From: Candidatus Omnitrophota bacterium
GTDB lineage: Bacteria > Omnitrophota > Gorgyraeia > Gygaellales > Profunditerraquicolaceae
Assembly: GCA_963805065.1 (NCBI GenBank)
Contig: CAWDSS010000012.1
Coordinates: forward strand, 108,174-172,173
Direction: 5' to 3'
DNA: 64,000 nucleotides
The number at the start of each line of letters is the position of its first letter. Positions within the stretch are counted from its first letter, which is position 1. The translations under genes and the position numbers were made by a program. The notes below the pieces were generated by a model. That model was not told the DNA's origin and made no database searches. It worked only from the letters and a program-made list of their open reading frames with translations. Shown in pieces: positions 39,891 through 61,982 of this stretch.

Positions 39891-39960
39891 ATTCTTTCCT
39901 TTTAAATTCCTACGGGCATCTGTCCATACAGCCTTAATGCTTCAAGGAAATTGAGGTGTT

Positions 39961-39992
39961 TTTTATGATTCCTTTTGGCTCTTTTATGATTC
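39961..39992. promoter_or_regulatory. two direct TTTTATGATTC repeats between RHH gene and giant gene
   Basis: Identical 11-mers at 39961 and 39982 (21-bp period), 70-100 nt upstream of the giant-gene ATG. Confidence 0.4.
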
Positions 39993-40008
39993 TTAAAGTA
40001 AACGCGTT

Positions 40009-40540: not shown

Positions 40541-40618
40541 GTAACTATTCTAAATTGTCAAATTGTCACTTTGCACATTAAGTATAACACATTTGTCCTG
40601 TTTTTTCAAGGCAGGCCC

Positions 40619-41146: not shown

Positions 41147-41150
41147 AATT

Positions 41151-42584: not shown

Positions 42585-42623
42585 TTCGCTTCATAATACT
42601 ATTAACGTAACCCAATTTCAAGC

Positions 42624-44571: not shown

Positions 44572-44983
44572 CGGATAACTTTATGGTTACGTTATCAATG
44601 CTTCCGTCTGGATAGAAAGCGATTTGCGTTTGATCCGCAGCTACTTGTATATCTTGCGGGATGTACACAGTCTTTAACCGGTTCTTATCATTCAAAATGC
44701 CGGCCCAATATTCTCTCGCCCCATTATCTATATTGAGCATGAAAGTTTCTTGGGCCACGATTGACTGTTGGCGTAAATAAACCATATAGGATTGCAAATC
44801 TTGAGAAAAAGTGCTTAATTGTAGGCTGGTATAATTATTTTTTAGTTGAGGCAGGGCGATTGCGATTAATATAGAAAGTATGATTATGACAAATAATAGC
44901 TCAATGAGTGTAAACCCCGTTAGAAGCTTTATTCTGTTTTTCTGGACATTTGGTATTTCTAACGGGGTAAAACCCTTATTCAT
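44504..44983 (-). CDS. GspH/FimT-like minor pseudopilin
   Basis: LTGFTLIELLFVIIILSILIAIALP followed by a GspH-like LQLSTFSQDLQSYMVYLRQQSI segment. Confidence 0.6.
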   Translation of the reverse strand: MNKGFTPLEIPNVQKNRIKLLTGFTLIELLFVIIILSILIAIALPQLKNNYTSLQLSTFSQDLQSYMVYLRQQSIVAQETFMLNIDNGAREYWAGILNDKNRLKTVYIPQDIQVAADQTQIAFYPDGSIDNVTIKLSDANKQAISLTTKGVYGSVKVQR

Positions 44984-46191: not shown

Positions 46192-47912
46192 TAATCTTCG
46201 GGTAATTCTTCCTGTTGAGTTACTCGCACAACTTCAGTAAGGGTAGTTGTGCCTTTAAGAAATTTGCGCAGGCCGTCCTGGCGAAGGGTGCGCATGCCCT
46301 GTGAAATTGCTTTTTGTTTTATCTGCTGGCTGGAGGCGTGGTTAAGCATAAGCTCCCTGATTGGCTCGGTTACGGTTAATATCTCATATATTGCTGTGCG
46401 GCCATGAAAGCCTGTAAACCTGCATTCCTCACAACCTTTAGCTTCATAAATCATCGCCTTTTCTAAATCAAAATCTATATCTTTAATGTGGCTGAGTATT
46501 TCATTCCTGGATTTTTCCGGGACCGATACCTTGCATTTAGGGCAAAGGACCCTGACCAATCTTTGCGCTATAAGGTATTCAAGCGACGAAGACACTAAAA
46601 ACGGCTCAATACCCATATCCAAAAGCCGGGTTACCGCGCCCGCAGCATCATTAGTGTGCAAAGTAGAAAAAACCAGATGTCCGGTCAGTGCAGAGCGGAT
46701 TGCTATTTCGGCAGTCTCGTAATCCCTGACCTCTCCTACCATCATTACGTCGGGATCATGCCTTAACATGTGGCGAAGTGCCGTAGCAAAAGTAAATCCT
46801 ATTTGCGGAATAACCTGGACCTGATTAACTCCTCTTAACTGGTATTCCACGGGATCCTCAATGGTTATAATTTTTACAGCCGAAGAATTTATGCGCGATA
46901 GGCAGGCATACAAAGTAGTTGATTTTCCTGAACCAGTCGGGCCTGTTACAAAGATAATGCCATGCGGTTTTTTTATTGCCTGTTCAATAATCTTAAGGTC
47001 TTCCTGTAATAAACCCAGTTTTTCCAGCTCAAGGAACAACGCAGAGCTTAAAATCCTGATATGCACAGACTCTCCGAATGACGTAGGTATAATGGAAACA
47101 CGCAGGTCCAGCTCCTGCTCATTAACCTTTATCTTAATCCTTCCATCCTGGGGGAGCCTGCGCTCTGCAATATTAAGGCCGGACATAATCTTTATACGGG
47201 AAACTATGGCAGGATGAAAATATTTAATCGTCTCCGGTATGTTAACGTCGTAAAGCACGCCGTCTATCCTGAACCTGGTGCGCAATTCCTGATAAAAAGG
47301 CTCAAGGTGAATATCAGTAGCCCGGTCTTTTACCGCCTGAGAAAGTATCTGGTTGACGAATGTAATTATGGAAGCGTCTTCCGCCAATACCTCCAAATCC
47401 TCGACTTTTTCTTCGCGCATGCTTAGTTGTTCTGACGTGAGTTTCTGGTCGATTATTTTCTCCAGGGTTTCTGCGCCCACGCCGTAATACTTACGGATTG
47501 CCTCCTGAATTTCCGGCTCACTTGCCAAAACGCCTTTTACTTCTAAATTCAAAAGCAGCCTTATATCATCCAGAGTGCGGATGTCCAGGGGATCTGTCAT
47601 GGCAATGGTCAAACAATCGTTTTTAAATTCCAGCGGCATGATTTTATAGTGGCTGGCGAATTTTGCCGGCACCTTTTGGATAATCAAAGGCTCGATATCA
47701 ATAGTGTTTAATTTTATGTAGGGAATGTTTAACTGTTTGGAAAGCAGTTGAAATATCTTTTCTTCGCTGATATAACCTAATTTAACCAGGGCAGTGCAAA
47801 TAAAATCACCTGTTTTAGCCTGCTCAATAAGCCCTTTATCCAACTGCTCAGGCATAATCAGGCCCTCTTCAATCAGCATCTGCCCGATTAACACATTGTC
47901 TTTTGTCGGCAT
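46191..47912 (-). CDS. gspE: type II secretion / type IV pilus assembly ATPase (GspE/PilB family)
   Basis: N-terminal MshEN/T2SSE_N-like domain, Walker A GPTGSGKST, Asp box, Walker B, His box, tetracysteine CPKC...CEEC. Confidence 0.9.
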   Translation of the reverse strand: MPTKDNVLIGQMLIEEGLIMPEQLDKGLIEQAKTGDFICTALVKLGYISEEKIFQLLSKQLNIPYIKLNTIDIEPLIIQKVPAKFASHYKIMPLEFKNDCLTIAMTDPLDIRTLDDIRLLLNLEVKGVLASEPEIQEAIRKYYGVGAETLEKIIDQKLTSEQLSMREEKVEDLEVLAEDASIITFVNQILSQAVKDRATDIHLEPFYQELRTRFRIDGVLYDVNIPETIKYFHPAIVSRIKIMSGLNIAERRLPQDGRIKIKVNEQELDLRVSIIPTSFGESVHIRILSSALFLELEKLGLLQEDLKIIEQAIKKPHGIIFVTGPTGSGKSTTLYACLSRINSSAVKIITIEDPVEYQLRGVNQVQVIPQIGFTFATALRHMLRHDPDVMMVGEVRDYETAEIAIRSALTGHLVFSTLHTNDAAGAVTRLLDMGIEPFLVSSSLEYLIAQRLVRVLCPKCKVSVPEKSRNEILSHIKDIDFDLEKAMIYEAKGCEECRFTGFHGRTAIYEILTVTEPIRELMLNHASSQQIKQKAISQGMRTLRQDGLRKFLKGTTTLTEVVRVTQQEELPED

Positions 47913-47925: not shown

Positions 47926-48717
47926 CTAAGAAATTTCCTTTAGCTTGTTGTAAACATAATCCACTGCCTGGGAAAAAGTAAGAATGCGGTCAGCTTCGTC
48001 ATCAGGTATCTCTAAACCCAGGGCTTCCTCTAAAACCATGGCAGCGCGTATTGCATCTACGGAATCCAGGCCTAAATCTTCATTGAAGCGTGATTCTAAC
48101 TTAATTTTATCGGCGTATTCTATGCCGAATTCCTGAACGAACATATCCTGCAGCTTTAAAAATAACTGTTCCTTGGTCAGGTGTTTTTCTTGGCGGAGTG
48201 CTTTTGCATTATCAGCTTGCGCTCTATGGGTTTTAATTTCCTGTGAGGTAGCTTCCTGAAGCCTGTTCATAAAATCTTTTATGCTCCTGGTATGGTTAAG
48301 GACTTTTTTCACATTCTCGGCCAATAAACCCGCTTTCCTGTGTGAATCAATAAAATCTTCCACTATCAGGTTTATCATATATACGTCATTGCCTATATAA
48401 TGCGTGAATAAATCTCTTAACAGCGGGTGCAGGGGCATGCTTTCCTGGAATTCAGGAAATTCCAAATCATCTTTTGAAACCACGGTCAATTTATTGGTAA
48501 TGTCTTTGATATGGCGGGTATAGATTAAAATCTTTTTAGCTTCCTGAGCGGGGATGGATTCATTGCCTTTAAGATAATACTGGCAAAGAAGGTTTATAGC
48601 CGTGATATCGTCGCCAATACGGTTATAAAGAAGATCCCAGATTTCCGGGTCGATAGAAATATTTTCCGCTTTTATCTGCTCGTAAAGCTGTTTTTCGTTG
48701 GGAAGAGGATTTGCCAT
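47926..48717 (-). CDS. protein with duplicated unknown N-terminal domain and C-terminal acyl-carrier-protein domain
   Basis: The C-terminus FNEDLGLDSVDAIRAAMVLEEALGLEIPDDEADRILTFSQAVDYV is a clear ACP fold with the DS(V/L) phosphopantetheine site. The N-terminus has two homologous ~60-aa units (ITAINLLCQYYL...TRHIKDITNKL and VYMINLIVEDFI...TRSIKDFMNRL). Confidence 0.6.
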   Translation of the reverse strand: MANPLPNEKQLYEQIKAENISIDPEIWDLLYNRIGDDITAINLLCQYYLKGNESIPAQEAKKILIYTRHIKDITNKLTVVSKDDLEFPEFQESMPLHPLLRDLFTHYIGNDVYMINLIVEDFIDSHRKAGLLAENVKKVLNHTRSIKDFMNRLQEATSQEIKTHRAQADNAKALRQEKHLTKEQLFLKLQDMFVQEFGIEYADKIKLESRFNEDLGLDSVDAIRAAMVLEEALGLEIPDDEADRILTFSQAVDYVYNKLKEIS

Positions 48718-48723: not shown

Positions 48724-49110
48724 TTAAAGGTCAATCTTTGCAGCTTCAGAAATGACCTTGTCTAATTCTTCCAGCTCAAGGGGCTTAAGTATGTAAGCTG
48801 CAGCACCTAATTGCCGTGCCTGCTCAATCTTACCTTTGTCAGTAATGCGGCTTACCATAATACAAACGGCATTATTGTCTATTTCTTTGATTTTTTTCAG
48901 GGTCTCAATGCCGTCCAGGGGAGAAAAAGGCATATGCACGTCCAGCAGGCTTATCTGGGGCTTTTCTTTTCTGAATATCTCAACTGCAGCAGGGCCGTCT
49001 GTGGCGCCAAAGGTGATAAAACCTTTTCTGGAATAAATCTTTTTGATAAAATCCACTATCCCTTCTTCGTCATCGACTATTAATAACTTTAAGGCTTGTT
49101 TTTCTTCCAT
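48724..49110 (-). CDS. response regulator, receiver domain only
   Basis: Start set at MEEKQ (GGAGG RBS). LLIVDDEEG, SLLDVHMP, IMVS, YILKP. Confidence 0.85.
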   Translation of the reverse strand: MEEKQALKLLIVDDEEGIVDFIKKIYSRKGFITFGATDGPAAVEIFRKEKPQISLLDVHMPFSPLDGIETLKKIKEIDNNAVCIMVSRITDKGKIEQARQLGAAAYILKPLELEELDKVISEAAKIDL

Positions 49111-49196
49111 ATTCGCCTCCGCTCTATTTTCCCCCAAGGGGAGAATCCGTTTTTATTGTAATATAAATGCATTTGCGGGTCAATGATTATAAATCA

Positions 49197-49236
49197 GGGA
49201 CACCCTCGATTTCAAAGCAAAGGGTGTCCCTTTTTT
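49197..49236. terminator. GC-rich hairpin with flanking A/T tracts directly after the XRE gene stop
   Basis: gggacaccc-16 nt-gggtgtccc-tttttt. The perfect T6 is on the plus strand and TGATTTAT is on the minus side, so it is possibly bidirectional. Confidence 0.5.
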
Positions 49237-49765
49237 ATCTAATCTCAAGATGAATAGCTGCTCCTAAGCTATCAGCTATCTTTTTAAGGGTAAGCAGGGA
49301 GATATTTTCTTTTCCCTTTTCAATGCGAGATATCATTTGCTGGGAAATTTCTAGTTTTTTGGCTAAATCTTTCTGAGTGAGGGATTTTTGCTTGCGGATT
49401 GATATTATTTGGTCTGCGGTTGCCTTGCAGAATTCGTTCTCCTGCCTTGCAGAACCGCCCTGCCCTGCAAAAACAATCCCTCTGTCCTCATATTTTTCTT
49501 TCAGTTTTTCATAAATTGCCTGCCAAAACTCTATACGAGGGTTATTCCAGGAGTCTTTGCGCATCTGCCTTTTTATCCTTTGCCAGTTTTGTAAAAAAAC
49601 TGCCGGTTTTAAATACATTTTGAACACTTCCTTAGGCGTATTTTTTCGGGAGAGTAATAAACCAGCTAAAGATAAAAAATGTTCGTCCTTAGTGTTTCTC
49701 AAAATTGAGATTGCTTTTTTCGGGCTTATGCTTTTATCCCAAAGCCAATCGTTATTTATTTTCAT
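49235..49765 (-). CDS. XRE-family HTH protein with unknown ~110-aa N-terminal domain (candidate antitoxin)
   Basis: The C-terminus LTQKDLAKKLEISQQMISRIEKGKENISLLTLKKIADSLG is a classic Cro/C1 HTH. There is a 4-nt ATGA overlap with the upstream NTase gene. Confidence 0.7.
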   Translation of the reverse strand: MKINNDWLWDKSISPKKAISILRNTKDEHFLSLAGLLLSRKNTPKEVFKMYLKPAVFLQNWQRIKRQMRKDSWNNPRIEFWQAIYEKLKEKYEDRGIVFAGQGGSARQENEFCKATADQIISIRKQKSLTQKDLAKKLEISQQMISRIEKGKENISLLTLKKIADSLGAAIHLEIR

Positions 49766-50478
49766 ATTGCCTCGATTTCCTTTTCAATTATTTTACCTAT
49801 TTCTTTTTTAAAATGCGCTTCTAAATCTTTATAGTCCACATCTTTTTTTAACTTTAGGTCCAATAGGCCAGTCTTAATATCAAAACGATCATAGGTACGG
49901 AACCACCTTATAATAGCTTCGCGAGTCGTTTGATTGCAATATTTGAAACAAAAATCCGACAACCGCATGAATGTAATAGACAGGCAATACAAATCATAAA
50001 AGTCCTTTGCCTCCTGCCTGCCGCCCTTGGTAACCGGCTTTCCCGAAAGATCTTCTGTGGTTAGCGTTCCGGCTATGGCAAAAATCTTTCTGATATAAAT
50101 GTCTTCAAGAGAGAAAACTTTTATCCCGTTTACTATTTTTGGTTGTTTTACCAATCCTAAATAATCCTGAATAAAATCGATTTTTAACGAATCGTTTTTG
50201 CTGATAGATATTGAAAAAATGAGTAACTTAATCATATCTTCTCTTGCCTGCTCGCCAACAAGAACCACTTTCTTCTTTAAACACAAGGAAAGTAAATTGA
50301 TTACCCCCAAGACTCTGATCTTGCTGAATTTGCTTGTAAAAAAATCTAAATCCAAAGATTCCCTGTGTCGGAAATAAAATAAAGACAGCGCGGTACCGCC
50401 GCCAAGGCAAAAATCGTCAATTTTTCCCTCCAGCGCTTTTAATACCTTCTCTTGATAAGTTCGAATTTGCGGTTTCAT
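49762..50478 (-). CDS. AbiEii/AbiGii-family nucleotidyltransferase (DUF1814-type toxin)
   Basis: LGGGTALSLFYFRHRESLDLDFF is the hallmark N-terminal NTase motif of AbiEii-like proteins. 238 aa. Confidence 0.7.
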   Translation of the reverse strand: MKPQIRTYQEKVLKALEGKIDDFCLGGGTALSLFYFRHRESLDLDFFTSKFSKIRVLGVINLLSLCLKKKVVLVGEQAREDMIKLLIFSISISKNDSLKIDFIQDYLGLVKQPKIVNGIKVFSLEDIYIRKIFAIAGTLTTEDLSGKPVTKGGRQEAKDFYDLYCLSITFMRLSDFCFKYCNQTTREAIIRWFRTYDRFDIKTGLLDLKLKKDVDYKDLEAHFKKEIGKIIEKEIEAI

Positions 50479-50538
50479 GGTTCAAATATACAACATAAAA
50501 GTTGTTTTGTCAAGTATTTTTACAACTTATAAGTTGTA
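50479..50538 (-). promoter_or_regulatory. consensus sigma70 promoter (leaderless geometry) with two ACAAC-N6-GTTGT operators
   Basis: The minus strand reads TTGACA (50513..50508) - 17 nt - TATATT (50490..50485) - 6 nt - ATG (50478). The palindromes are ACAACATAAAAGTTGT (50490..50505, in the spacer) and TACAACTTATAAGTTGTA (50521..50538), with centres 32 bp apart. Confidence 0.65.
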
Positions 50539-50712
50539 AAACTAATCTATAATAACAGACGCAGAAAGGAGAAAAATCTTATGCATTTTTTCTAGAGATA
50601 GCTTGATTAGTAAAATAGTTATTTTGTAAGTCGGTTATTTATGAAGGGTTAGAAACAACGTCTTTGTTACATCTTTGTTACGTTTGTTACGTTATTATAG
50701 ATTTGTTCATCT

Positions 50713-51117
50713 TTATGAAGAGTTAACAACAGGGTCTTTGTTATTGTTACCTTTGTTATTCTTTTCTTTAACGCAGAGTAAGATATTACCAATAATCGCT
50801 AACCAGAATGGTGATATAATTATCAGTCCGACCCAAATTGGAGTATAGTAATATTTGGGAACATTATTTGATATCCCCATCATCATCATAATAATCGATA
50901 AAATTATTGAAATTGGAACGATTGCAATAAAAAGTAATTTTCTCCTAATTTTATTATGCAATAGAGAATAGCCAAAAACAATGAATGGTATTCCTAAAAA
51001 TGCCAAGTAAAATCCTTGGATCATTAAGATAATTAACATAAAAAATAATCCCAAAATTATATTGACTACTCCTATCACTGCACTAAAAACCTCTAAAGCG
51101 GATATTTTTTTATTCAT
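50713..51117 (-). CDS. small polytopic membrane protein, candidate Rhs immunity protein
   Basis: ORF trimmed to Met25 (AAGGAGGA RBS), starting 20 nt after the Rhs stop. Four predicted TM helices. No recognisable family. Confidence 0.55.
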   Translation of the reverse strand: MNKKISALEVFSAVIGVVNIILGLFFMLIILMIQGFYLAFLGIPFIVFGYSLLHNKIRRKLLFIAIVPISIILSIIMMMMGISNNVPKYYYTPIWVGLIIISPFWLAIIGNILLCVKEKNNKGNNNKDPVVNSS

Positions 51118-51139
51118 AGTAATCCTCCTTATAAATAAT

Positions 51140-54100
51140 CTAAGGCGAATAAGATCTAATTGATTTCTCAGGATTTCCTTTTTTTTCAATCATAGGATCT
51201 TGTGGAGAATGGATTAACTCCATGTGGCATTTCCAAACCTCTTTATCCCAAACCTGCCACCAGTTAACTCCTGTATTACTAAGACATTCATCATGAGTTT
51301 TACATGCACTATCACTAGGAGAAGTTGGACAACCCGGACCACTTTTAGTTAATCCGCAATAATTTGTTCCGGGGTAAGCCCAAGAAGTAAGATCCCACCA
51401 TTCAAAAGGAGCAGTCGCATTTTTGCTACACAATCCCCACAAATCAACTAAATTTATAGGATTATTTCCTACATGCATATACATATTTGGCCCATCGGCC
51501 ATACCACTTGGATCTTGAGTTATAAACCTGCCGATTGTTGGATCATAATATCGTGCGCCGAAGTAGATTAAACCAGATTGCTCTGCTTCTTTGGTTAGGA
51601 ATTGATGGGCATTGGCTAGATTAGCCTGAGTAAGAAGGTTGCCAAAAGCATCATAAGCGTAGGATTGGATATTTGCTCCAGTGGTGTCGCTTAGGTTAGA
51701 TACGCTGCCTAATCCATCGTAGCTATAATAGTTTTCAGGATTAGAGCTTTGTTGTGAATTAATAATCCCGCCAATCCCTCCTGCTGCGTAAGGATTGCGC
51801 AGATAACTTGCAACTGGGTCACCTGAGCCGTTGCGTTCTAAAACTACATCCATACCATCGTAGAGGTAATTTGTAGTACTTGAGCCGTTGGTGCTTGATA
51901 TCCTCTTTCCTTCCCCGTCATAGCCATAGTGGAAATCGGGGACAGTCCCTGTTGGGGACAACCCTTGAGTAAGCCTATTCTCATAATCATAACTTAGGTT
52001 TAACTCTTGAGTTGAGGATTGCTTTTTGATGAGGTTGCCGTTGTTATCATAAAGATAAAGGATTTGATCGGCTTGGTTGTAGGTGACATGGAGTGTCTGG
52101 GTGGATGTGTTACCAGGAACATCTGTGGCAGTAACAGTAATAATATTTAGGCCGTTGGATAAATTTATTGAGCAGCTAAAATTGTTCCCATTTAAAGCGG
52201 CATTGCTGCCGTTAACTGTAACTGACTGGATTCCGGATGCATCAGTGGCTGTGCCGGTTACGGTAATGGGCACTGTAGCAGGGCCGGTAATGTTCTCCTG
52301 GGTAAGCTGATTGCCGCTATTGTAGGTATAGAGATGTTCTGTACCCTGTCTTACCATACTGGTGCGGTTACCTGATGGGTCGTATTCATAGGTAGCCTGA
52401 TATGGATTTGCACTTGAGCTGTTGTTTTCTTGTGTAAGCTCGCCAACTGCATCATAAGTATAGTCAATTACGCTGTCAGGTAAGGTAACCCTGGATTTTC
52501 TTCCTGCATTATCATAAACATAATCGAAATCCGAAAGCTTATCAAGAGAGCCGGTTGTCTTTTGGTTAGTCAGATGTTTTAAGCGATGCAGAGAATCAAA
52601 AGCGTAGGTTGCCTGGACATTGTTAGGATAAACAATGGCAGCAGGATTGCCTAAAGGATCATAGGTGTAGGTGGTTGTTTTATTATTGGAATCGGTAATT
52701 GAGGAAATCCTTCCCAGCGCATCATAGCTATACTGGATAGTTTTTCCTCCCGGCAAAGTTAAGCTCGTGCGGTTACCCAGTGAATCATAGGTATATTGCA
52801 GGGTTGAATTTGCGCCAGGTGAGCTAATCTGCGTCAGGCGGCCAAGTGAATCATAAGTATAGCTGGTAGTACCTTGGGAGTCGGTCATAGAGGTTCGCCT
52901 GCCTAATGAGTCATATGAAAAGCTTACCGAAGTAGCATCAGGATAATTCATCTTCTTTAAGCGGTTAAGTGAGTCATACACATAGGTAATAGTATTACTG
53001 TTTGCGTCTGTTATGCTTGTGCGGTTTCCCACCGGGTCATAGGCATAAGATTTTGCCAAACCTAAGGGGTTAGTTTCCAGAACAAGCCGGTTCAATGAAT
53101 CATACTGGTACGTTGTTGTGTGCTGGTTCTGATCAACTACGCTTATGCGGTTACCTTCAGTATCATAGCCGAAATTAATTGTTTTGCCAAGGGGATTAGT
53201 GATGCTGGTAACATGATTATTTAAATCATAAGTATAACTTGTAGTGTTTCCTGCGTTATCGGTAGCAGACAGCTTATTACCCAAGGCATCATAGGTAAAA
53301 GACGCGGTTGAGCTGTCAGGATAGGTTATAAGTGTCAGCTGGTTAAGATTATTATAGGTAAACTGGGTAACGTTATTTGCAGCGTCCTTAAGTTGGGTGC
53401 GGTTTCCCAGTAGGTCATAGCTAAAAGTAATGGTGTTATTGAGCGCATCAGTTGAAGTTAAAAGATCGCCATAGGCATCATAGGTAAAGCTTGTCGTGTA
53501 ATTCCTTGGGTTAGTCGTGCTGATAAGTTGTCCAGAGGCATCGTAAACATTGGCTGTAAAATTACCCAGCGCGTCAGTCAGTTTGACGAGATTTCCGTTT
53601 GCGTCATAATCATATGCCGTAAGATTACCTTGCGCGTCGGTAATTGTTTTAACAAAATCAAAATCAGAGGTGTAAGTAAAGGCTGTGGTATTGCCAAGCG
53701 GGTCAGTTGCGGTTAAGAGATTGCCACGGCTGTCATAGGTATAGTTTGTGGTATTTGAATTTTTATCGGTAACGGAGATTTTATTCATATTCCCGTCCCA
53801 AACATTAAGCTGGATATTATTTTGAGCATCGGTAATTTTTGTCACCAAGCCGTAGGTATTGTATTCGTATTTGGTAATATTACCACGTGAGTCTGTTACC
53901 GTGGTAATTGGGTTGGCTGAATCAAAGGATAAACTAACCGCGTTATTGTTATTGTCCTGCCAAGATTGATATGCGCGGCCGAGTGAGTCATACTCAAAGT
54001 TAAGCGTATGGCTATTAACGTCAGTCTTAAGAATAAGCTGGTTATTGCCGTTATATTGATAGGTAGTTACGTTATTTAGCGGGTCAGTTACTTTTGTAAG

Positions 54101-55369
54101 ATTACCATTTGCATCATAGTCATATTTAAAAATCCTGTTTGCGGGATCGGTTATTTGAGTGGTCCTTCCGTTAGAATCATTAGTAAACAATAATTTCCTG
54201 CCGGAAGCATCATCTACTTCAGTAATTATTCCGTTTGCATCCCTTAAAATATTTATTGCGTTAGAGTTCCTCCCTTCAATCTTCGTCAGGCGACCGTAGG
54301 TGTCGAAATAATCTTGTTGTCCGTGTTTTCTTAAAATCGTATACGTAGAGTCTGCGTTTTTGGTAAGGGTAGAATATTCCCCTGGCGAAGGCTGATAGGT
54401 GCCGTCCGCGTTCTTGGAATAAACCGTGTAGACTGCTGTTTGATCGACTTCCACTACCGAGCCGTCAGGATATTCTTTTAAAGTATCATCAAAATTAGAG
54501 CGCCAGCCATAGCCGAACTGGCCGTTAAAGTTATCCTGAGAATTATAGTTACGGGTTAGTTCCAAAGGCAGCTCTTTTGCCGGTATGGATATATCGTTTT
54601 GGGAGGTAAACATAGTGCCGTTAGCTACATTAATCGGCTCGCCGACAACAGTAGGATTGGGATTTTGTTTCATTGGGTCAATTTGAGGAGCAGGAGGATA
54701 TCCCTTAGTTATATTAATCTTAACCGGGGTTCCTTTACCTGAATCATCTGTGCAATAGCCGGAAAGCGTATATTCTCCCAAGGGGTAAGAGCTGATACTG
54801 AAATCCGCGCTCAAAGTTCCAGAAGTTAGGGGGCTGGGAAGATAAAAGTAACGAGTTATCGGATATATGCCGTTGCCTGATAGCTGGAGCGAGGCATAGT
54901 TAATTCCATGAAAATTAGGTGCCACACTATGAAAAGAAATAGTAACAGGAAGGCTAGTCTGATTAGGCGGTATAAATGCACCGTCAACAGGCGTAACAAA
55001 AGTCAATACGGGATAAGGATTATTTACGGTTACTGAAATAGCATCGTAAAAGTTCGGTACACCACTATAACCGCTACTGGCTATGACTCCCAATTGCACA
55101 ACAGCCCCATTTACTACCCCTGAAGTATCCCAGTAAAAGGTGTGCGTGCCTGAAACTTCAGGCGGGCTAATATAAAAATATCCCAATACATAACTATATA
55201 GGGAATTAATAGGACATTGTATACTGCCTGAATAAGTCACAACCACAGGAACTATACCTCCTACTGTCTGACCATCAGCAGGAGATTCGATTTTAACGGC
55301 TGCCCAGGCTTGCATTTGCAGAAGAAACGAAAGAATTAAAAGAAAAATAATAAAAAGGCTTGTTTTCAT
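51140..55369 (-). CDS. Rhs/YD-repeat toxin with Ig-like N-terminal domains and a PLA2-like C-terminal tip
   Basis: Signal peptide and dozens of YD repeats (YTYDALGN, YQYDSLNRL, ...). The Rhs core end reads GARYYDPTIGRFITQDP...NPINLVDLWGL, followed by a 96-aa tip with NYCGLTKSGPG...DSACKTHDEC. Confidence 0.9.
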   Translation of the reverse strand: MKTSLFIIFLLILSFLLQMQAWAAVKIESPADGQTVGGIVPVVVTYSGSIQCPINSLYSYVLGYFYISPPEVSGTHTFYWDTSGVVNGAVVQLGVIASSGYSGVPNFYDAISVTVNNPYPVLTFVTPVDGAFIPPNQTSLPVTISFHSVAPNFHGINYASLQLSGNGIYPITRYFYLPSPLTSGTLSADFSISSYPLGEYTLSGYCTDDSGKGTPVKINITKGYPPAPQIDPMKQNPNPTVVGEPINVANGTMFTSQNDISIPAKELPLELTRNYNSQDNFNGQFGYGWRSNFDDTLKEYPDGSVVEVDQTAVYTVYSKNADGTYQPSPGEYSTLTKNADSTYTILRKHGQQDYFDTYGRLTKIEGRNSNAINILRDANGIITEVDDASGRKLLFTNDSNGRTTQITDPANRIFKYDYDANGNLTKVTDPLNNVTTYQYNGNNQLILKTDVNSHTLNFEYDSLGRAYQSWQDNNNNAVSLSFDSANPITTVTDSRGNITKYEYNTYGLVTKITDAQNNIQLNVWDGNMNKISVTDKNSNTTNYTYDSRGNLLTATDPLGNTTAFTYTSDFDFVKTITDAQGNLTAYDYDANGNLVKLTDALGNFTANVYDASGQLISTTNPRNYTTSFTYDAYGDLLTSTDALNNTITFSYDLLGNRTQLKDAANNVTQFTYNNLNQLTLITYPDSSTASFTYDALGNKLSATDNAGNTTSYTYDLNNHVTSITNPLGKTINFGYDTEGNRISVVDQNQHTTTYQYDSLNRLVLETNPLGLAKSYAYDPVGNRTSITDANSNTITYVYDSLNRLKKMNYPDATSVSFSYDSLGRRTSMTDSQGTTSYTYDSLGRLTQISSPGANSTLQYTYDSLGNRTSLTLPGGKTIQYSYDALGRISSITDSNNKTTTYTYDPLGNPAAIVYPNNVQATYAFDSLHRLKHLTNQKTTGSLDKLSDFDYVYDNAGRKSRVTLPDSVIDYTYDAVGELTQENNSSSANPYQATYEYDPSGNRTSMVRQGTEHLYTYNSGNQLTQENITGPATVPITVTGTATDASGIQSVTVNGSNAALNGNNFSCSINLSNGLNIITVTATDVPGNTSTQTLHVTYNQADQILYLYDNNGNLIKKQSSTQELNLSYDYENRLTQGLSPTGTVPDFHYGYDGEGKRISSTNGSSTTNYLYDGMDVVLERNGSGDPVASYLRNPYAAGGIGGIINSQQSSNPENYYSYDGLGSVSNLSDTTGANIQSYAYDAFGNLLTQANLANAHQFLTKEAEQSGLIYFGARYYDPTIGRFITQDPSGMADGPNMYMHVGNNPINLVDLWGLCSKNATAPFEWWDLTSWAYPGTNYCGLTKSGPGCPTSPSDSACKTHDECLSNTGVNWWQVWDKEVWKCHMELIHSPQDPMIEKKGNPEKSIRSYSP

Positions 55370-55371
55370 AA

Positions 55372-56490
55372 TTATTGCGGCCTTATCACCGCATTATCAA
55401 GCGGTGAAGTAATATTCAATTCAGGTGCAGTTGTGTCCAAGATTATCGCGGCTGAATAAACTTGCGACCAGTTGCCTGCAGCATCAGAGAACTTTACATA
55501 AATGGTCTTAGTACCATCACCTGTGGTTAAAGTCCAGGTTTTGGTGATGGTATATGTTTCAGGTATTAACCAAGTTATTCCATCATTTGAGAATTGCATC
55601 TGGCTAAGGCCAGAGCCGCTGTCATTAGCATTAAGAGTTAAGGTAATGCTAGTTGCATTAGTGTATTGGTTGCCATTATTTATTGTAATCGTGCCTGTGG
55701 GAGAAGCGGTATCCAAGATAATAGTACTTGAAAATGCACTTGACCAGTTACCTGCAACATCCTTGTATTTGACATAAACTGTCTTGGTGCCATCACCCGA
55801 AGCAAGCGTCCAGTTCACGGTAGTGGCATAAGCTTGGGGAGTTGACCACGTGGCGTTGTCATTAGAAAATTGCATCTGACTGAGGCCAGAATAGGAATCA
55901 GTGGCCAAGAGATTAAGGGTAACGCTAGAAGAATTAGTGTATTGAACGCCATTATTTATCTTGATTGTGCCAGTGGGAGGTGTTGTGTCAGAAGACAAAC
56001 CGTATAATTTAACCTCATAAATAACCGGAGAAATTAACTGGGCTCTGTTTATATATAGCCTGATGTAACGGTTAGCTTTTGACAAACTGTAAGTCAATTT
56101 ATAAGGGTTAGTTGTACCACCAGCAGATGAAAGATTGGAATAAAGATTAACCCAGTTGACGCCATCATTGGAAGCCTGGATATTATAATTCGTGGAGCCA
56201 AGAAACCTATTCCACCAGATTGAGATTTGCGTTAAAGAATAGGTTTGCCCCAAATCCAAGCTTAGCCACCAATAAGTTTTAGGGAATCCGCCTATCCAGG
56301 TAGTGTTAAGATTGTTATCAATTGCCTTGGATGCATCGAAGAGATAAACCAGGGAACTGGATGCTGCGGCTGAAGAAACTTTTAATTCAGTGTCGGCAAA
56401 GGAAGGATTTGAAAGCAGGCAAAAAAATAGGACCGCTAAACCTCCAAAGACTTTAACTTTTTTGGTTCCGGTCCTTAATAATTCGGGCAC
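55372..56490 (-). CDS. secreted F5/8-type-C (discoidin) domain protein with two Ig-like repeats
   Basis: Signal peptide and discoidin-like AIDNNLNTTWIG...WWLSLDLGQTYSLTQISIWW...YNIQASNDGVNW. Two ~95-aa repeats begin with DTTPPTGTIKINNG and DTASPTGTITINNG. The stop lies 2 nt before the Rhs ATG. Confidence 0.75.
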   Translation of the reverse strand: MPELLRTGTKKVKVFGGLAVLFFCLLSNPSFADTELKVSSAAASSSLVYLFDASKAIDNNLNTTWIGGFPKTYWWLSLDLGQTYSLTQISIWWNRFLGSTNYNIQASNDGVNWVNLYSNLSSAGGTTNPYKLTYSLSKANRYIRLYINRAQLISPVIYEVKLYGLSSDTTPPTGTIKINNGVQYTNSSSVTLNLLATDSYSGLSQMQFSNDNATWSTPQAYATTVNWTLASGDGTKTVYVKYKDVAGNWSSAFSSTIILDTASPTGTITINNGNQYTNATSITLTLNANDSGSGLSQMQFSNDGITWLIPETYTITKTWTLTTGDGTKTIYVKFSDAAGNWSQVYSAAIILDTTAPELNITSPLDNAVIRPQ

Positions 56491-56581: not shown

Positions 56582-58771
56582 TTAAATCATCCGTTTTGAA
56601 CTTAAAGTATCTTGCTTAAGCTCTGCTTCGCTTACGTCTTTTAGCACGGGCAACTCGATGATAAAACTAGCGCCTTTGCCTGGGCCTTCTGACTCAGCCC
56701 AAATTTTTCCTTTGTGCCTCTCGATGATTTTCTTTGCGTTGTAAAGGCCCATGCCAGTGCCTTCGGTAGAAACCTTGGTAGTGGTAAAAGGAGTAAAGAT
56801 TACGGAAAGCATATCTTTTTTAATGCCGTAGCCGTTATCAGAAAAAACAATCCTTACCTGGCTGTGGTTCAAAAGGCTTAAGGACAAAAATACTTTCTTA
56901 TCCTTCATGTCTTTCATGGCATGGATAGCATTATTCGCCAATATTACCAATGCCTGCATAAGCTCAGGCTTCTCTCCCTTTACATACACCGGCCCCTTTA
57001 GCTGGCTTATCTTTTCATAAACAACAGTCTTATCCTTAAACTGCGGGTAATACAGCTTAGAGAAAGTGTCGACCACGTCTTCAATATTTATCGGCCTGAA
57101 TTCTCCGGTTATCTTCTGGCCGAAATCGCGTATTGCCTTAACCATTCCGGAAACTCTTTTAGCAGTCTCAACTATAAAATTAAGCGAATCCGAGACTTCT
57201 TTTTTCTTATTTTCATCAGGAATATCCTTTAGCAAGTCCATCTTCAGAAATCCTGCCTGACCGAGGATTACCTGCATGGGATTATCTATTTCATGGGCGA
57301 GTGAATAAGAATAAGCATCCATTTCCTGAAGCCGTGCCTTACGCTCCTTCTCCACAACGTCCTGCCAAAACTGGCAGTTTTCAATGGCAAGTGCTGCCTG
57401 ATTAGAAAGCACTTGAAGGACATTCAAATCTTCCTGCGTGTATACGCGGCCTGATAACTTATCACCCAGTATTAGAAAACCTGAAAGTGTATTTTCAGTA
57501 AAGCTGGGCACAATTACAGAAGCACCCAATGCCTTCATTTGAGTCTTAATCTCAGCCAGTTGCTGCGCCCGTGAAACATTCTTTCCCTGGCTAAGCATTT
57601 CTAATTCATCAAACACTAAAGGTGCCCGCGATTGCTCCAGCCACTGGATAAGTGGGATATTGCTATTAATAGGATTGAGGTCGTTGAATTTATCTCCGAT
57701 ATGCGCGTCTTGTGGTATAAATTTGTTTACTTCCTTATCCAATAGATATATGCCGGCATTATCCAGCCGTAACTTTGAGGAAAAAATATGCACTATGGAA
57801 GCCAGTAATTCCCTCATATCCGTAATCCTGCTCATGTCCTTCGAGGACTCATTCAACAGAGTCTGATAATCATATTCTTTTTGGAACAGGAATCTGTCAG
57901 TCAGGCTTATGAGCCAGTTCTTAAGAGGTTCATAAAAAGCAGTAATAGCTAAAACACTAATCGCCAAAGCCAAAACTTTTGAGCTGATTATCTGGCTTAA
58001 ATACATCTGCGCCAATCCTGCAGTTAAGGCGAACACAAAGAATACAAAACCAAATAAGCCTGCGAATATCACCGCCCTGCGGATAATGACTTCAATATCT
58101 AGGAGACGATACTGTAGTATCCCGTAGGCTAATAAAAATATATATACAGAAACCAATGGATGAGTTATCGGGGGGATTGGAATGTTATAAAATAGGAAAA
58201 AATTTATGCTACCGCCAGCATATCCAATCAATGTCGCTATAAACAATATCTGAAACTGCTTTTTTCTTAATCCTTTTGATACATTAAATTCTTTATATAG
58301 TAAGTACCATGAATACATTGCAACAGTGAAGAATTTCAATAAAAGAGGATGGAATAAAATTCCTGGATTAGGCCAGTATTTAAAAAACATTTTTGCGCTT
58401 ACTCCCTGTATAAATAATGGCGAAAAAATGAAACATAATAAACCAAAATCAATTATAAAACTATATAGAACTAATTTCATCAGTTTATATCTTTTGGCTT
58501 CCTCTAAATCTATTAATTTAATTGTATGATATAGTGAACAAGAAGGTATAAACATAGTACCAACCATGAGCATCCTTGACCAAAATAAAGCGCTTTGGGC
58601 GGTACTAGCTATTTGCCACATAAAGTAACTATAATTCCAAATAGATAATGACGCACACAGTAGCCCAAAAGAAATATACTTGGTATTTCGAGTATTCTTG
58701 GTATATACAAAAATACCCAATATGTTACTTACTACTCCATTAATTAACCCACTGATTGCGTAGTAAAACAT
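56582..58771 (-). CDS. polytopic membrane sensor histidine kinase with GAF domain
   Basis: About 8 N-terminal TM helices, a GAF-like middle region, H-box SLAHEIDNPM, and an HATPase domain (ILANNAIHAM, DNGYGI, GTGMGL). Confidence 0.85.
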   Translation of the reverse strand: MFYYAISGLINGVVSNILGIFVYTKNTRNTKYISFGLLCASLSIWNYSYFMWQIASTAQSALFWSRMLMVGTMFIPSCSLYHTIKLIDLEEAKRYKLMKLVLYSFIIDFGLLCFIFSPLFIQGVSAKMFFKYWPNPGILFHPLLLKFFTVAMYSWYLLYKEFNVSKGLRKKQFQILFIATLIGYAGGSINFFLFYNIPIPPITHPLVSVYIFLLAYGILQYRLLDIEVIIRRAVIFAGLFGFVFFVFALTAGLAQMYLSQIISSKVLALAISVLAITAFYEPLKNWLISLTDRFLFQKEYDYQTLLNESSKDMSRITDMRELLASIVHIFSSKLRLDNAGIYLLDKEVNKFIPQDAHIGDKFNDLNPINSNIPLIQWLEQSRAPLVFDELEMLSQGKNVSRAQQLAEIKTQMKALGASVIVPSFTENTLSGFLILGDKLSGRVYTQEDLNVLQVLSNQAALAIENCQFWQDVVEKERKARLQEMDAYSYSLAHEIDNPMQVILGQAGFLKMDLLKDIPDENKKKEVSDSLNFIVETAKRVSGMVKAIRDFGQKITGEFRPINIEDVVDTFSKLYYPQFKDKTVVYEKISQLKGPVYVKGEKPELMQALVILANNAIHAMKDMKDKKVFLSLSLLNHSQVRIVFSDNGYGIKKDMLSVIFTPFTTTKVSTEGTGMGLYNAKKIIERHKGKIWAESEGPGKGASFIIELPVLKDVSEAELKQDTLSSKRMI

Positions 58772-60523
58772 TTATATCTCTTCTGCCTTTCTTGCTAATG
58801 CGACGTTTGCCTGATCGCCAAATGACCTAAAAATATTTATACCAATAAAACCAGCCTCACTCATTAAATCAGACAGTTCTTCTTCAGCGAAAAAATGGTA
58901 ATGTCCTTCTTTTTCTTTCTGCCTAATCTTTCCTGCGGCGCTTAATAATTTTCTGCCTTCCAGCAACTCTTCTTCTGTTTCTATATTATTTGCATAATTA
59001 CTGTATACTAATGATAAATCACTGTAAGGTTTCAAAGACGTAACTATGATTTTCCCACCTGACTTAAGGACTTCCCTTAGCCTTTTTATCACACCAACCG
59101 GATTTTTTAAATACGAAACCACTAAGTTACAACATATATTGTCAAAATAGTCTGTTTTGAATGGTAGTTGCTTTTCTAAATCTGATAAGATATATTGGCA
59201 TTTAATCAAATCAAAACAATTATATCGCCTAATCTTCAAATAATCTATCATAATGCCATTGTGTATTCTTTGGGCTTCATGCAACGCATTATATACGAAA
59301 TCTACTCCCGCATAGTAATATATGTCCGCTGACGTATATTCTTTTTTCTGGGCAGAATTATTAAAGGCTTGACTCTCTAATATACGTCTTATTAACCATG
59401 ACCCAAAATGCCCATTGCCACATCCAGCATCAAGGATCTTATCCCCCATTCTTATTTCCCCAAATGAATTAACGATAAAATCTAACAAGCTCCTGAAATC
59501 ATCGGATTTGGTTATAATTAAATATTTTGACAAATAACTATCCCAAAAATTTTTCTCGCCTTCTTTCGTAATTTTTGTAAGTGCCTTTAAACTTGCCATT
59601 TCAACTTTATTTTGTTTAACTAGATAACGGACATCTGGCTCAAAAATAGAATCAATTTGCTTATTTTCATTCTTAATATATTCAATGCAAAACTTAACTA
59701 TCTGCATGATAACAATTCTTGCTAATCTAGGGTTTTCTTGAATTTGATGAAAAGCACTAGGAATGACATAAGCTTTGCAATTATCTTTATTTTCACATAT
59801 TGCTTCTACATCTTTATAATTAACCCAAGCATCTTTTTCAGCAACCAAAAAAACTATGGGGCACTCTACATTTTTGATATCATCTTTCGTGTCTGCTAAA
59901 GAAGCCACATTATTTTTTATGGCGGCTCCTATCAAGTCATCGTGCACTTCGAAACCCATAATATCAACCATACCCCATCTCTTACCAGATCGGTATGATT
60001 CAACTAAATCTTCTCTATAGATTAAATTTAAGCTCGATTCAAGATCAACTAATCCAGCTAAACTTAATAAAAATCCGATTCTTTTATCCTGTGCACATGC
60101 TTTTATAGCAATTCTTACAGCTAGACTTGAGGCAACAATGCCTATTCTTTTCACACTAAATGTCTGTTCAACATAATCAAAAACATCTATTAAATCATCG
60201 CGCATCGTCAACAAATTCGTATTCGCAATCTCACCATCGCTTTCTCCTATATGGTCTGTATTGTCATAACGCACTACATCGAATCCATTAACCGTAAGAT
60301 AATAAGCTGTTGAAATATAATCTCGTTTTGTTTCTCCATAAGCTGGTGGTATGACAATAAAATATTTATCTTTAGATAAATTATTGACATAATCATGATA
60401 CCCTATGATAGTCTTTCCGTTTCTATTCTTAATGGCTAGCCGTTCGCTATTTATGGCTTCTTTCTTTATTTTTCTGTGTTCAAAGTCTAATTTATTATTG
60501 TGTGCGACCGATAGTAATCTCAT
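58772..60523 (-). CDS. LuxD-like acyl-ACP thioesterase/acyltransferase fused to class I SAM-dependent methyltransferase
   Basis: The N-terminal half is colinear with my recollection of LuxD: NGFDVVRYDNTDHIGESDGEI, IGIVASSLAVRIA (nucleophile), FLLSLAGLVDLESSL, PIVFLVAEKDAWV, SAFHQIQEN. The C-terminal half has MTase motif I ILDAGCGNGHFG and post-I/II blocks. Confidence 0.65.
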   Translation of the reverse strand: MRLLSVAHNNKLDFEHRKIKKEAINSERLAIKNRNGKTIIGYHDYVNNLSKDKYFIVIPPAYGETKRDYISTAYYLTVNGFDVVRYDNTDHIGESDGEIANTNLLTMRDDLIDVFDYVEQTFSVKRIGIVASSLAVRIAIKACAQDKRIGFLLSLAGLVDLESSLNLIYREDLVESYRSGKRWGMVDIMGFEVHDDLIGAAIKNNVASLADTKDDIKNVECPIVFLVAEKDAWVNYKDVEAICENKDNCKAYVIPSAFHQIQENPRLARIVIMQIVKFCIEYIKNENKQIDSIFEPDVRYLVKQNKVEMASLKALTKITKEGEKNFWDSYLSKYLIITKSDDFRSLLDFIVNSFGEIRMGDKILDAGCGNGHFGSWLIRRILESQAFNNSAQKKEYTSADIYYYAGVDFVYNALHEAQRIHNGIMIDYLKIRRYNCFDLIKCQYILSDLEKQLPFKTDYFDNICCNLVVSYLKNPVGVIKRLREVLKSGGKIIVTSLKPYSDLSLVYSNYANNIETEEELLEGRKLLSAAGKIRQKEKEGHYHFFAEEELSDLMSEAGFIGINIFRSFGDQANVALARKAEEI

Positions 60524-61975
60524 CTATATTATTTGTCTTTTTTTTGCAAGAATTAACCGGGCTGTCGAAGAACCTATATATGCCGCCATAGGTAAACCTG
60601 CCTCGCCTGTAGAATATGTTACCCATTGGCCGCATAAAAACAAACCTTCTATTAAACTTTTTTGAGGCATAATTAAACGGTCAATCTGTGATGGAACCGC
60701 TGCCCATCCGTGAGCAGAACCACCCCTATTTAAAGTATATTTATACAAATCAAACGGCGTAACCGTTTCAGTTGTAACGATTTCTTTTTCTATGTCTGGT
60801 AAAACATCTTTCGCTCTATTAATCAATTTACCAACAAATTCTTGTTTTTTGTCTTTCCAAAATTTATCGTTTATAAAAGGAACAAAAACCGTTAAGGCCA
60901 TGCTTTCTTTATTCTTGGGAGCTAACTTTTCATCGCAAACTGAAGGGAATATAAAATGCATAGGTATATTTAACTCTTTATCATTTAAATATTTTTCATC
61001 TCTTGGATCATAGTGATCTAGATTATCTCTATTGGAATAAGATAATACATAAGTAGGTTTAATTGTAGTACTCAATTTTCTGTTTAGCCCAAGATAAAGA
61101 ATGAAACCTGAAACAGAGGGACGCAAATTATTCAGTTTAATTATAAAATCTTTCTCTATACAATTTTCTCCAACCAGGTTTAAAAATACTTCGGTCGGGT
61201 CACATGCAGCAACAACAAATTTAGAACGAATATGGCCAACTCTTTTAATATTTACGCCATCTATTCTACTATTAAGTAAAGTAACCTTGTCAACCAAGTG
61301 TGATAATAATATTTCTCCTCCAAATTCTTTAAATCTTTCTGCAAATGCATTGCTCAAAACCTGCATTCCTCCTTTGGGATGATAACCTAAGTCGAAAATG
61401 AATTCGCGAAAATGAGTGATGGCAGTAACTGCTGATGCCTCCGCAGGCCTCAAGCCTAATCTGCATAACATCATTATTAAAACTGATCTCAACCTACGGT
61501 CAGAAAAATAGGTATCCAAAAGATCCTTTAAAGTTTTATCTTTTAATCTATGGTATAGCTGCACAGAATTAATTGTCTGAATAAAATGGAAGAAGTTCAT
61601 TATAGCTTTTGCTTCTCTAGGAAATTTTTCCTGCAGCTCTTCGATAGTTTTATTAAAATCATTGTGTACAGCTACAACACAATCAGACATCTGAATGGTG
61701 TCTGATGGGTCAAATCTTGTAAAATCTACTTTCTTATCAATTTCTAACTGATTAACGATATCTCTAAAAGATTTACCTTTACCGAGATTCCCCAATGAAG
61801 AAGTAAGGATATTAAATACAAATCTATTCCTTTTAAACGAAGTACAATACCCTCCTACCTTGTTATGCTGTTCAACTATCAATACCTTCATTCCCGCCTT
61901 AGCCAAATAGCAACCGCAGGTAAGGCCACCAATACCAGCTCCAATAATTATGACATCATATTTTTCTTTTAGCAT
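60524..61975 (-). CDS. FAD-dependent oxidoreductase of the phytoene-desaturase (CrtI) family
   Basis: YDVIIIGAGIGGLTCGCYLAKAGMKVLIVEQHNKVGG dinucleotide-binding motif. About 480 aa with a CrtI-like C-terminal GQWV..G.G motif. Confidence 0.75.
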   Translation of the reverse strand: MLKEKYDVIIIGAGIGGLTCGCYLAKAGMKVLIVEQHNKVGGYCTSFKRNRFVFNILTSSLGNLGKGKSFRDIVNQLEIDKKVDFTRFDPSDTIQMSDCVVAVHNDFNKTIEELQEKFPREAKAIMNFFHFIQTINSVQLYHRLKDKTLKDLLDTYFSDRRLRSVLIMMLCRLGLRPAEASAVTAITHFREFIFDLGYHPKGGMQVLSNAFAERFKEFGGEILLSHLVDKVTLLNSRIDGVNIKRVGHIRSKFVVAACDPTEVFLNLVGENCIEKDFIIKLNNLRPSVSGFILYLGLNRKLSTTIKPTYVLSYSNRDNLDHYDPRDEKYLNDKELNIPMHFIFPSVCDEKLAPKNKESMALTVFVPFINDKFWKDKKQEFVGKLINRAKDVLPDIEKEIVTTETVTPFDLYKYTLNRGGSAHGWAAVPSQIDRLIMPQKSLIEGLFLCGQWVTYSTGEAGLPMAAYIGSSTARLILAKKRQII

Positions 61976-61982
61976 ATTTTAA

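Follow-up and report, generated by a model that had tools for sequence, protein, structure and literature searches.

A 64,000 nt stretch of a Candidatus Omnitrophota genome (contig CAWDSS010000012.1; hereafter, the window) carries three co-oriented open reading frames (ORFs) on its minus strand, at 56490..55372, 55369..51140 and 51117..50713, which encode a lectin-like protein, a 1,409 amino acid (aa) Rhs protein and a small protein with four transmembrane (TM) segments. A preliminary description had proposed a three-gene Rhs polymorphic-toxin module at this site, and all three ORFs were found on the minus strand where it had placed them. The locus is a real module, and its Rhs protein is a polymorphic toxin of the kind linked to Sec and type II secretion system (T2SS) export, with a phospholipase A2 (PLA2) tip; toxins of this kind are already known. 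The tip, previously left without an identity, is by homology a member of the secreted PLA2 (sPLA2) superfamily, an assignment that largely fixes the mechanism. The four-TM protein is a strong candidate for the cognate immunity protein on grounds of family and linkage. Taken as a whole, the locus is likely to be a toxin-immunity module of a diderm anaerobe that works independently of a type VI secretion system (T6SS), with Sec export, a PLA2 tip and four-TM immunity.

The tip comprises the last 96 residues of the Rhs protein (1314–1409; 51143..51430, minus strand), with a core of about 65 aa. It carries a Ca-loop-like sequence (YCGLTKSGPG, tip residues 24–33), a His-Asp pair (H46-D47, or H1359-D1360 of the Rhs protein) within ACKTHDEC, and six cysteines. 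All 60 of the PDB sequences matched by the tip were PLA2 or parvovirus VP1, and the matches spanned the Ca-loop and the CCxxHDxC helix. An exhaustive HMMER search of 1.84 billion protein representatives gave 34 matches, about 30 of them true relatives, while a word-index homologue search retrieved nothing. Four matches, all in multiple stretches, were discounted (P0014, P0023, P0028 and P0036): when read, P0014 and P0028 were low-complexity repeat proteins, and P0023 has a phage-tail domain.

In an alignment of 28 tips, which are 24–49% identical to that of the window, residues G26, D40, H46 and D47 are invariant. A profile built from this alignment matched 154 distinct PDB chain sequences (best E-value 1.7e-8), and among the matches listed 60 of 60 were PLA2, aligned over the Ca-loop and CCxxHDxC motif of the snake and pancreatic enzymes. 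When the tips were scanned singly against Pfam, PLA2_1 was found in 15 of the 28, PLA2_4 in 14 and PLA2_2 in nine, and the best scores of other members reached E-values of 7e-9 (PLA2_4) and 8.5e-8 (PLA2_1). An alignment-based AlphaFold2 model of the window tip (mean predicted local distance difference test score, pLDDT, 82.7) has a loop and, after it, a pair of long antiparallel helices; a single-sequence model of core plus tip was unusable (pLDDT 47.7). The top 50 Foldseek matches of the tip model in PDB were all sPLA2, and those in BFVD were nearly all VP1-type capsid proteins of parvoviruses and densoviruses, the site of the viral PLA2 domain.

Several observations speak against a straightforward sPLA2. 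The window tip alone falls just under the Pfam cut-offs, with 23.1 bits against 23.9 for Phospholip_A2_4, an E-value of 0.002 for Phospholip_A2_1, and a second Pfam PLA2 score of 19.1 against 32.1. The Foldseek E-values are weak (0.03–1) and the TM-scores only 0.3–0.5. The equivalent of Asp99 in classical sPLA2 is poorly kept, tip position 70 being mostly His and sometimes Asn or Asp. Several of the 28 tips have no cysteine at all yet retain the His-Asp pair, so this is not a textbook disulfide-locked sPLA2; in this, those members resemble the disulfide-free parvoviral enzymes, and they argue for selection on the active site.

The shortfall against Pfam thresholds and the lack of an obvious Asp99, together with a Ca-loop longer than the classical YCGxGG, would also suit a PLA2-like fold without catalytic activity, one that harms membranes by non-enzymatic means, as Lys49 myotoxins do, or that has some other target. 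Lys49-type proteins, however, have lost Asp49, which these tips retain, and the invariance of the four residues in otherwise divergent tips, cysteine-free members included, looks like purifying selection on an active site. An inert tip is accordingly considered improbable, and we infer from the conserved residues that the tip would act as a Ca-dependent PLA2. Compared with classical secreted PLA2 (groups I, II and III, and plant group XI) and the parvovirus VP1u domain, it shares a Ca-loop, the HD motif in the second helix and, in its model, a compact helical core. It differs in its longer Ca-loop (YCGxTKSGPG), its smaller size, disulfides that several members do without, and its predicted role as the cargo of an Rhs cocoon.

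A closely similar design was catalogued in 2012, when Zhang, Aravind et al. described Tox-PLA2 tips on RHS proteins with signal-peptide ('T2SS') trafficking (PMC3482391), which makes the arrangement in the window less unusual than first implied. Both are C-terminal toxins with PLA2 homology on signal-peptide RHS proteins. Tox-PLA2 was defined on the prokaryotic and fungal enzymes (PDB 1kp4; motifs DxC[ST] and CxxHxxxYxN), and the survey names no immunity family for it (PMC3482391). The window tip reads CKTHDECLSN, that is CxxHxxxLxN, with the Tyr of the Tox-PLA2 motif changed to Leu. None of the 28 tips matched the prokaryotic PLA2 model (PF09056, Phospholip_A2_3) at E-values up to 1, so an assignment to that family was rejected and the tips belong to a different PLA2 clade from Tox-PLA2; they match the animal/plant and parvoviral Pfam models instead. 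Two further differences are the tight linkage of the window tip to a four-TM family and the placement of the discoidin domain on a separate upstream protein. The tip clade was found in 2 of 185,579 species genomes and in none of 72,556 plasmids, and the toxin and antidote families are rare and appear to be undescribed.

The candidate immunity gene (50713..51117, minus strand) encodes a 134 aa inner-membrane protein with hydrophobic segments at about residues 9–33, 36–53, 61–82 and 95–116, as judged by hydropathy. The strong ribosome-binding site claimed for it is present (AAGGAGG, 51124..51130, minus strand, 6 nt before the ATG at 51117), inside a spacer that is 22 nt long, counted from the Rhs stop, and not 20 nt as first reported. 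Homologues share its start Met, which favours this start over that of a 158 aa ORF beginning with TTG. Neither Pfam nor NCBIfam gave a match. The first homologue found is 48% identical, and directly upstream of it the contig encodes an Rhs C-terminus that bears a homologous tip. A profile search of 5.8 billion clusters recovered a family of 17 members, and a metagenome scan with the immunity alignment gave nothing.

Conservation of the membrane gene independently of the tip had been named as an outcome that would speak against the module; the opposite was seen. Upstream DNA could be read at 11 independent loci (the window plus L002, L003, L005, L006, L009, L013, L014, L015, L017 and L020), and at every one the four-TM gene directly follows a tip of the PLA2 clade; the pairing holds across differing Rhs backbones and also for orphan cassettes. 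Downstream of the distant tip P0032 there is no gene of the four-TM family. Tips and membrane proteins vary together in pairwise identity (Mantel r 0.46, p 0.005, 10 pairs), a correlation that could partly stem from shared phylogeny. By the positive-inside rule, an N-in/C-in topology is predicted, with the KIRRK loop and both termini cytoplasmic, and the predicted periplasmic parts are a turn at Q-G and, between TM3 and TM4, a loop of 12–14 residues with the conserved sequence NxPKYYxTP.

The same protein could instead be a tip-specific helper, for example a membrane factor through which the PLA2 is exported, released or activated, or a partner of receptor type, with no role in immunity. It has no homology to a known immunity family in Pfam or NCBIfam, and, being almost wholly buried in the membrane, it offers little surface to a soluble enzyme; the Tli immunity proteins of T6SS phospholipases are periplasmic or lipoproteins. 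Against such a role, its position, orientation and tight spacing, with strict co-occurrence with the tip and not the backbone (orphan cassettes included), are what characterises pairs of toxin and immunity genes. For toxins that act on membranes, such as the pore-forming colicins, small polytopic immunity proteins of the inner membrane are well known. Two-TM immunity proteins also exist in polymorphic toxin systems (Imm17, Imm-CdiI; PMC3482391). A helper function is thus thought unlikely, and immunity is preferred.

A relic copy of the 3′ end of the immunity gene (50638..50689, minus strand) lies 74 nt downstream of the live stop, where about 50 nt are duplicated (direct repeats D1, 32 nt, 84%; D3, 15 nt, 93%). 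It translates as NKDVVSNPS before the stop, compared with NKDPVVNSS in the live gene, and is possibly the leftover end of a displaced immunity gene, a scar of past cassette replacement. The low GC content of the immunity gene (28%, compared with 40% for the genome) was not used as evidence of foreign origin, since TM-rich proteins are AT-rich anyway.

The Rhs protein carries its own signal peptide (residues 1–23; 55301..55369, minus strand), as had been proposed, with an AWA/AV cleavage site; the reading, MKTSLFIIFLLILSFLLQMQAWA followed by AV, was made by eye from the translation and not with a dedicated predictor. The region that follows (residues 24–240; 54650..55300, minus strand) possibly comprises two Ig-like domains. 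This was the weakest of the earlier claims: residues 25–88 gave a sub-threshold Big_7 match (E-value 0.0054; 17.8 bits against a cut-off of 24.1), and residues 24–242 had no match among PDB sequences. A plug-type DUF6531 domain occupies residues 243–310 (54440..54643, minus strand; Pfam E-value 1e-17, 64.7 bits), and is followed by the shell of YD/RHS repeats (residues ~311–1238; 51656..54439, minus strand), with 16 RHS_repeat stretches (E-value 1.2e-112) and YD_repeat_2x (E-value 2.8e-86). The shell is homologous to solved Rhs cocoons (7q97, 8h8a, 8qja and 7pq5).

Embedded in the shell is an Ig-like insert of Glucodextran_B type (residues 1034–1098; 52076..52270, minus strand; PF09136, 43.8 bits against a cut-off of 27), in agreement with the insertion noted earlier. 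It recurs in P0013 (38.4 bits) and in the orphan fragment of L002 (25.4 bits). The Rhs-associated core (residues 1239–1313; 51431..51655, minus strand) scored 73.2 bits on TIGR03696 (cut-off 32.5) and aligns to the TccC and YenC2 cores. It reads ARYYDP...QDP...NPINLVDLWGL, with ARYYDPTIGRFITQDPSG ahead of the final motif and a Cys as the first residue beyond the tip boundary; both the terminating motif and the 96-residue length of the tip had been described correctly. The end motif is a DLWGL variant of the usual DPxGL. From the conserved YYDP and DxxGL motifs, an autoproteolytic boundary is predicted after L1313. The model search suggested in the preliminary description, for RHS_repeat, the Rhs core and F5_F8_type_C, matched all three.

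The T6SS Rhs effectors (P. protegens RhsA 7q97, Tse5, Tse15 and Tre23) have the same DUF6531 plug, YD cocoon and self-cleavage motif in the core; their toxin sits inside the shell, as is predicted for that of the window, and the immunity gene likewise follows downstream. Residues 244–947 align to RhsA 7q97 with an E-value of 3.8e-74, the alignment starting at residue 244 in both proteins. Such similarity would be expected if the Rhs protein were cargo of a T6SS or of a toxin complex (Tc) type machine encoded elsewhere in the genome: from residue 244 the shell is nearest to T6SS Rhs effectors (7q97, 8qja, 7pq5, Tse15 and Tse5), and the tip cassette of L014 lies orphaned behind an SpvB/TcdB-Rhs fusion. 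The N-terminal region nevertheless takes the place of the PAAR/prePAAR region. Where those effectors have a PAAR/prePAAR or VgrG module, the window protein has a canonical Sec signal peptide and a non-PAAR region of about 220 aa, and residues 1–310 gave no Pfam match to PAAR, VgrG, SpvB or TcdB, even at E-values up to 10. A protein that Sec moves into the periplasm cannot be loaded onto a T6SS spike, since that loading takes place in the cytoplasm. A Pfam scan of the gene-like ORFs of at least 110 aa in the 64 kb window found no T6SS (PAAR, VgrG, Hcp) or Tc components, which upholds the earlier statement that none is nearby; the SpvB and TcdB_toxin_midN domains of the TcB-TcC toxins are absent from both the Rhs protein and its scanned neighbours. 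The tip-family backbones examined all lack PAAR, and the window shell has the extra Ig-like insert. Delivery by a T6SS or Tc-type machine is therefore judged very improbable, and Sec export is the preferred route.

Adjacent to the module, 3 kb away, is a T2SS/MSHA-pilus-like cluster (28583–47912), as the preliminary description had said of both the signal peptide and the neighbouring machine. It includes a secretin with a C-terminal TonB_C domain, a GspC-like protein, an ExeA-like AAA ATPase, GspF, pseudopilins and PilMNO, with a PilM-PilN fusion and a GspE that carries the MshEN domain of cyclic di-GMP type. A 2,553 aa adhesin (He_PIG, PKD, FN3, Big_9 and InlB B-repeat) is embedded between the secretin and the pilus-assembly genes. 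The secretin marks the organism as a diderm, and Wood-Ljungdahl genes at 13615–19550 (acetyl-CoA synthase and corrinoid genes: CdhD-type, RACo activase, pterin-binding methyltransferase) suggest that the producer is an anaerobe.

Dependence of the Rhs protein on this T2SS-like machine is inferred by analogy with Bcn-A of Xanthomonas perforans, a 1,398 aa Rhs bacteriocin that is active in culture supernatant, loses activity in a mutant of the T2SS secretin gene xpsD, needs accessory ORFs and has a downstream immunity gene (PMC7259588). Like the window protein, Bcn-A is an Rhs protein of about 1,400 aa from a Gram-negative (diderm) bacterium with the immunity gene downstream; compared by description, the two have unrelated toxin ends, accessory genes and immunity proteins.

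The gene upstream of the Rhs gene (55372..56490, minus strand) encodes a secreted protein of 372 aa with a discoidin/CBM32-like domain and two barrels of OmpL47/Big_7 type. It starts with GTG at 56490, preceded by AAAGGAG, and consists of a signal peptide (about residues 1–32), the discoidin domain (41–149) and two repeats of about 90 aa (~172–262 and 263–353). Pfam and NCBIfam matches sustain its earlier description as an F5/8-type-C protein with two Ig repeats: PF00754 (F5_F8_type_C) scored 54.7 bits (cut-off 28.2) and PF22633 44 bits (cut-off 27.8), while the repeats matched Big_7 (45 bits) and DUF7743 in Pfam and the OmpL47-type barrel domain in NCBIfam. The best PDB relatives of the discoidin domain are chitosan-binding modules of a Paenibacillus glucanase (4zz5/2rva; E-value 1.8e-9). 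The reported gap of 2 nt between this gene and the Rhs gene was correct: the stop (TAA, 55374–55372) is followed by TT and then by the Rhs ATG at 55369. Between the two genes there is neither a terminator nor a promoter that convinces, which points to co-transcription and possibly to coupled translation; a promoter and terminator scan of the region found nothing above shuffled expectation. Given this junction, the shared strand and the export of both products, the lectin protein is a candidate glycan-binding accessory of the Rhs toxin.

Comparative searches gave no support for this pairing, and it is a distinct possibility that the lectin gene encodes an independent secreted glycan-binding surface protein, with the functional module consisting of the Rhs and immunity genes only. 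Scans of genomes and metagenomes with the whole Rhs protein retrieved no relatives, and no protein with its N-terminal architecture came to light. Among about 15 billion proteins clustered at 90% identity, the four window proteins looked up (lectin, Rhs, four-TM protein and GspE) are each a singleton. In L003, the sole full-length relative with readable upstream DNA, a gene for a tetratricopeptide repeat (TPR)-like protein precedes the Rhs gene and there is no lectin, an observation that counts against the lectin as a partner. Other large Ig/PKD adhesins occur near the T2SS-like cluster, and the lectin barrels show no sequence similarity to the Rhs N-terminus, BLASTP having given no indication that they are paralogues. 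Set against this are the stop-TT-ATG junction and two precedents. Discoidin and other lectin domains are recorded as recurrent adhesion modules fused into RHS toxins (PMC3482391), which makes a split version plausible, and Bcn-A requires accessory ORFs (PMC7259588). A single split ORF was rejected, since the lectin frame meets two stops at the junction. The accessory role is retained as a plausible interpretation of the lectin.

The C-terminus of the lectin protein (55372–55440) ends in TAPELNITSPLDNAVIRPQ and resembles the first strand of a Big_7-type domain, the strand itself being APELNITSPLDNAVI. It also resembles the mature N-terminus of the Rhs protein (AVKIESPADGQTVGG) and its second segment (PVLTFVTPVDGAFIPP), at 55270–55300, with no homology detected between the lectin end and the Rhs N-terminus at the sequence level. 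This end may be a domain cut short, or else a strand made available to the partner.

A mechanism can be proposed from these features. The cleavable signal peptide would send the 1,409 aa Rhs protein through Sec, and by homology to solved cocoons the YD-repeat shell, plugged by DUF6531, would enclose the C-terminal 96 residues. The aspartyl protease of the Rhs core is predicted from its conserved YYDP/DxxGL motifs to cut after VDLWGL, leaving as cargo a compact PLA2 with a Ca-loop and His-Asp dyad, whose homology is observed and whose activity is presumed. Passage through the outer membrane of the producer would most simply use the T2SS-like machine 3 kb away, for which Bcn-A is the precedent. 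Freed at a target cell, the PLA2 would hydrolyse the sn-2 ester of membrane phospholipids, giving lysolipids and membrane breakage. The four-TM protein, whose linkage is observed, would serve as cognate immunity in the inner membrane, most likely by blocking the enzyme at its docking site, the membrane interface. The weakest step, based on the 2 nt junction, is that the possibly translationally coupled discoidin/CBM32 and Ig protein would supply glycan binding to the surface of the target or of the producer. One feature fits this scheme poorly: the window tip has no translocation region for the outer membrane of a target, although several relatives have a Gly-zipper segment. A more specific version, in which the four-TM family are membrane-embedded inhibitors of a rare parvovirus-like PLA2 clade and the discoidin/Ig subunit docks on the Rhs N-terminus for target recognition, with export via the T2SS, is offered only tentatively.

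Two other groups of toxins bear comparison. In WapA of Bacillus subtilis and Streptococcus suis, a Sec-exported YD-repeat toxin, the C-terminus is polymorphic and a cognate immunity gene accompanies it. Like the window protein it is a signal-peptide-dependent toxin of the Rhs family; WapA, however, acts from a monoderm cell wall and has nuclease tips, whereas the window protein belongs to a diderm and has a tip predicted to attack lipids. The Tle1-5/Tli pairs of the T6SS are antibacterial phospholipases that act from the periplasmic side, each with its own immunity gene. Tle enzymes have alpha/beta-hydrolase (GxSxG) or phospholipase D folds and not that of sPLA2, and where the Tli proteins are periplasmic or lipoproteins, the window candidate is an integral membrane protein with four TM segments.

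The loci of the relatives show how variable the surroundings of the tip can be. The backbone of P0004 (locus L003) is a signal/TM plus DUF6531 Rhs protein. L013, L014 and L017 have a hydrophobic glycine-zipper region of about 200 aa between the Rhs cleavage motif and the PLA2 tip (141–1628, 9338–10961 and 142–1760, respectively). The same three loci carry an immunity homologue of double length (236–247 aa) with an extra C-terminal TM half, perhaps as a counterpart to the additional membrane segment in the toxin. Genes for a hybrid kinase and a response regulator come after the tip-immunity pair of L005.

L014, from a Nitrospirae groundwater metagenome-assembled genome, also encodes a TcB-TcC-like fusion of 2,319 aa (SpvB, TcdB_mid, FG-GAP and RHS; 86–7045), followed by small ORFs, a Y1 transposase gene and an orphan cassette of PLA2 tip and immunity gene; the tip clade can therefore associate with Tc-type backbones. 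Genes for Y1 transposases, IS200-like and associated with repetitive extragenic palindromes (REP), adjoin tip/immunity cassettes at L010 (1178–1840), L013 (1856–2554) and L014 (8465–9139). They were recognised by PF01797 in L010 and L014, and in L013 by likeness to the L014 protein. Their presence in three unrelated contigs hints at a route for cassette mobility. In L019, an orphan Rhs fragment with the Ig insert and a distant PLA2 tip (712–1932) is preceded by the tail of a different toxin and then an unrelated multi-TM protein of 118 aa (2–536); in this locus toxin/immunity cassettes follow one another in an array, and the immunity candidates are of membrane type.

Around the module in the window, two minus-strand genes (48724–49137 and 56582–58771) act as brackets; they encode a 7TM-GAF histidine kinase and a response regulator that stands alone. 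The gap between kinase and regulator, about 7.4 kb, is exactly the Rhs module plus an AbiE pair, a block that may have entered a two-component operon as an island. The AbiE pair lies directly downstream of the immunity gene (49235–50478) and comprises genes for an AbiEii-type nucleotidyltransferase toxin (238 aa) and a Cro/C1-type helix-turn-helix protein (176 aa). Ahead of it lie the region's best promoter-like site, with 11/12 matches, and nested palindromes (TACAACTTATAAGTTGTA) with repeats at 50489–50544, which have the look of an operator. Just upstream of GspE (47926–48717) is a gene for a 263 aa protein with a C-terminal acyl-carrier (PP-binding) domain, and beyond the histidine kinase (58772–63194) are genes for an acyltransferase-methyltransferase fusion, a flavoprotein of amine-oxidase type and a ketoacyl synthase. 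It is possible that the secretion genes are flanked here by a gene cluster for lipids or a secondary metabolite.

Signal-peptide Rhs toxins without a T6SS adaptor are common in genome catalogues and almost unstudied in diderms. The locus described here is a clean, minimal example, with the tip placed right after the cleavage site, a separate lectin and a T2SS-like cluster next door, and it defines a small, tightly co-inherited pair of an sPLA2-type tip and a four-TM protein. Should the four-TM protein not act as proposed, the locus would be a further entry in the large catalogue of polymorphic toxins. If it does neutralise a PLA2 within the membrane, it would represent a new inhibitory principle for a medically important class of enzymes, in which immunity to a phospholipase is exerted at the lipid interface instead of by a soluble periplasmic binder.

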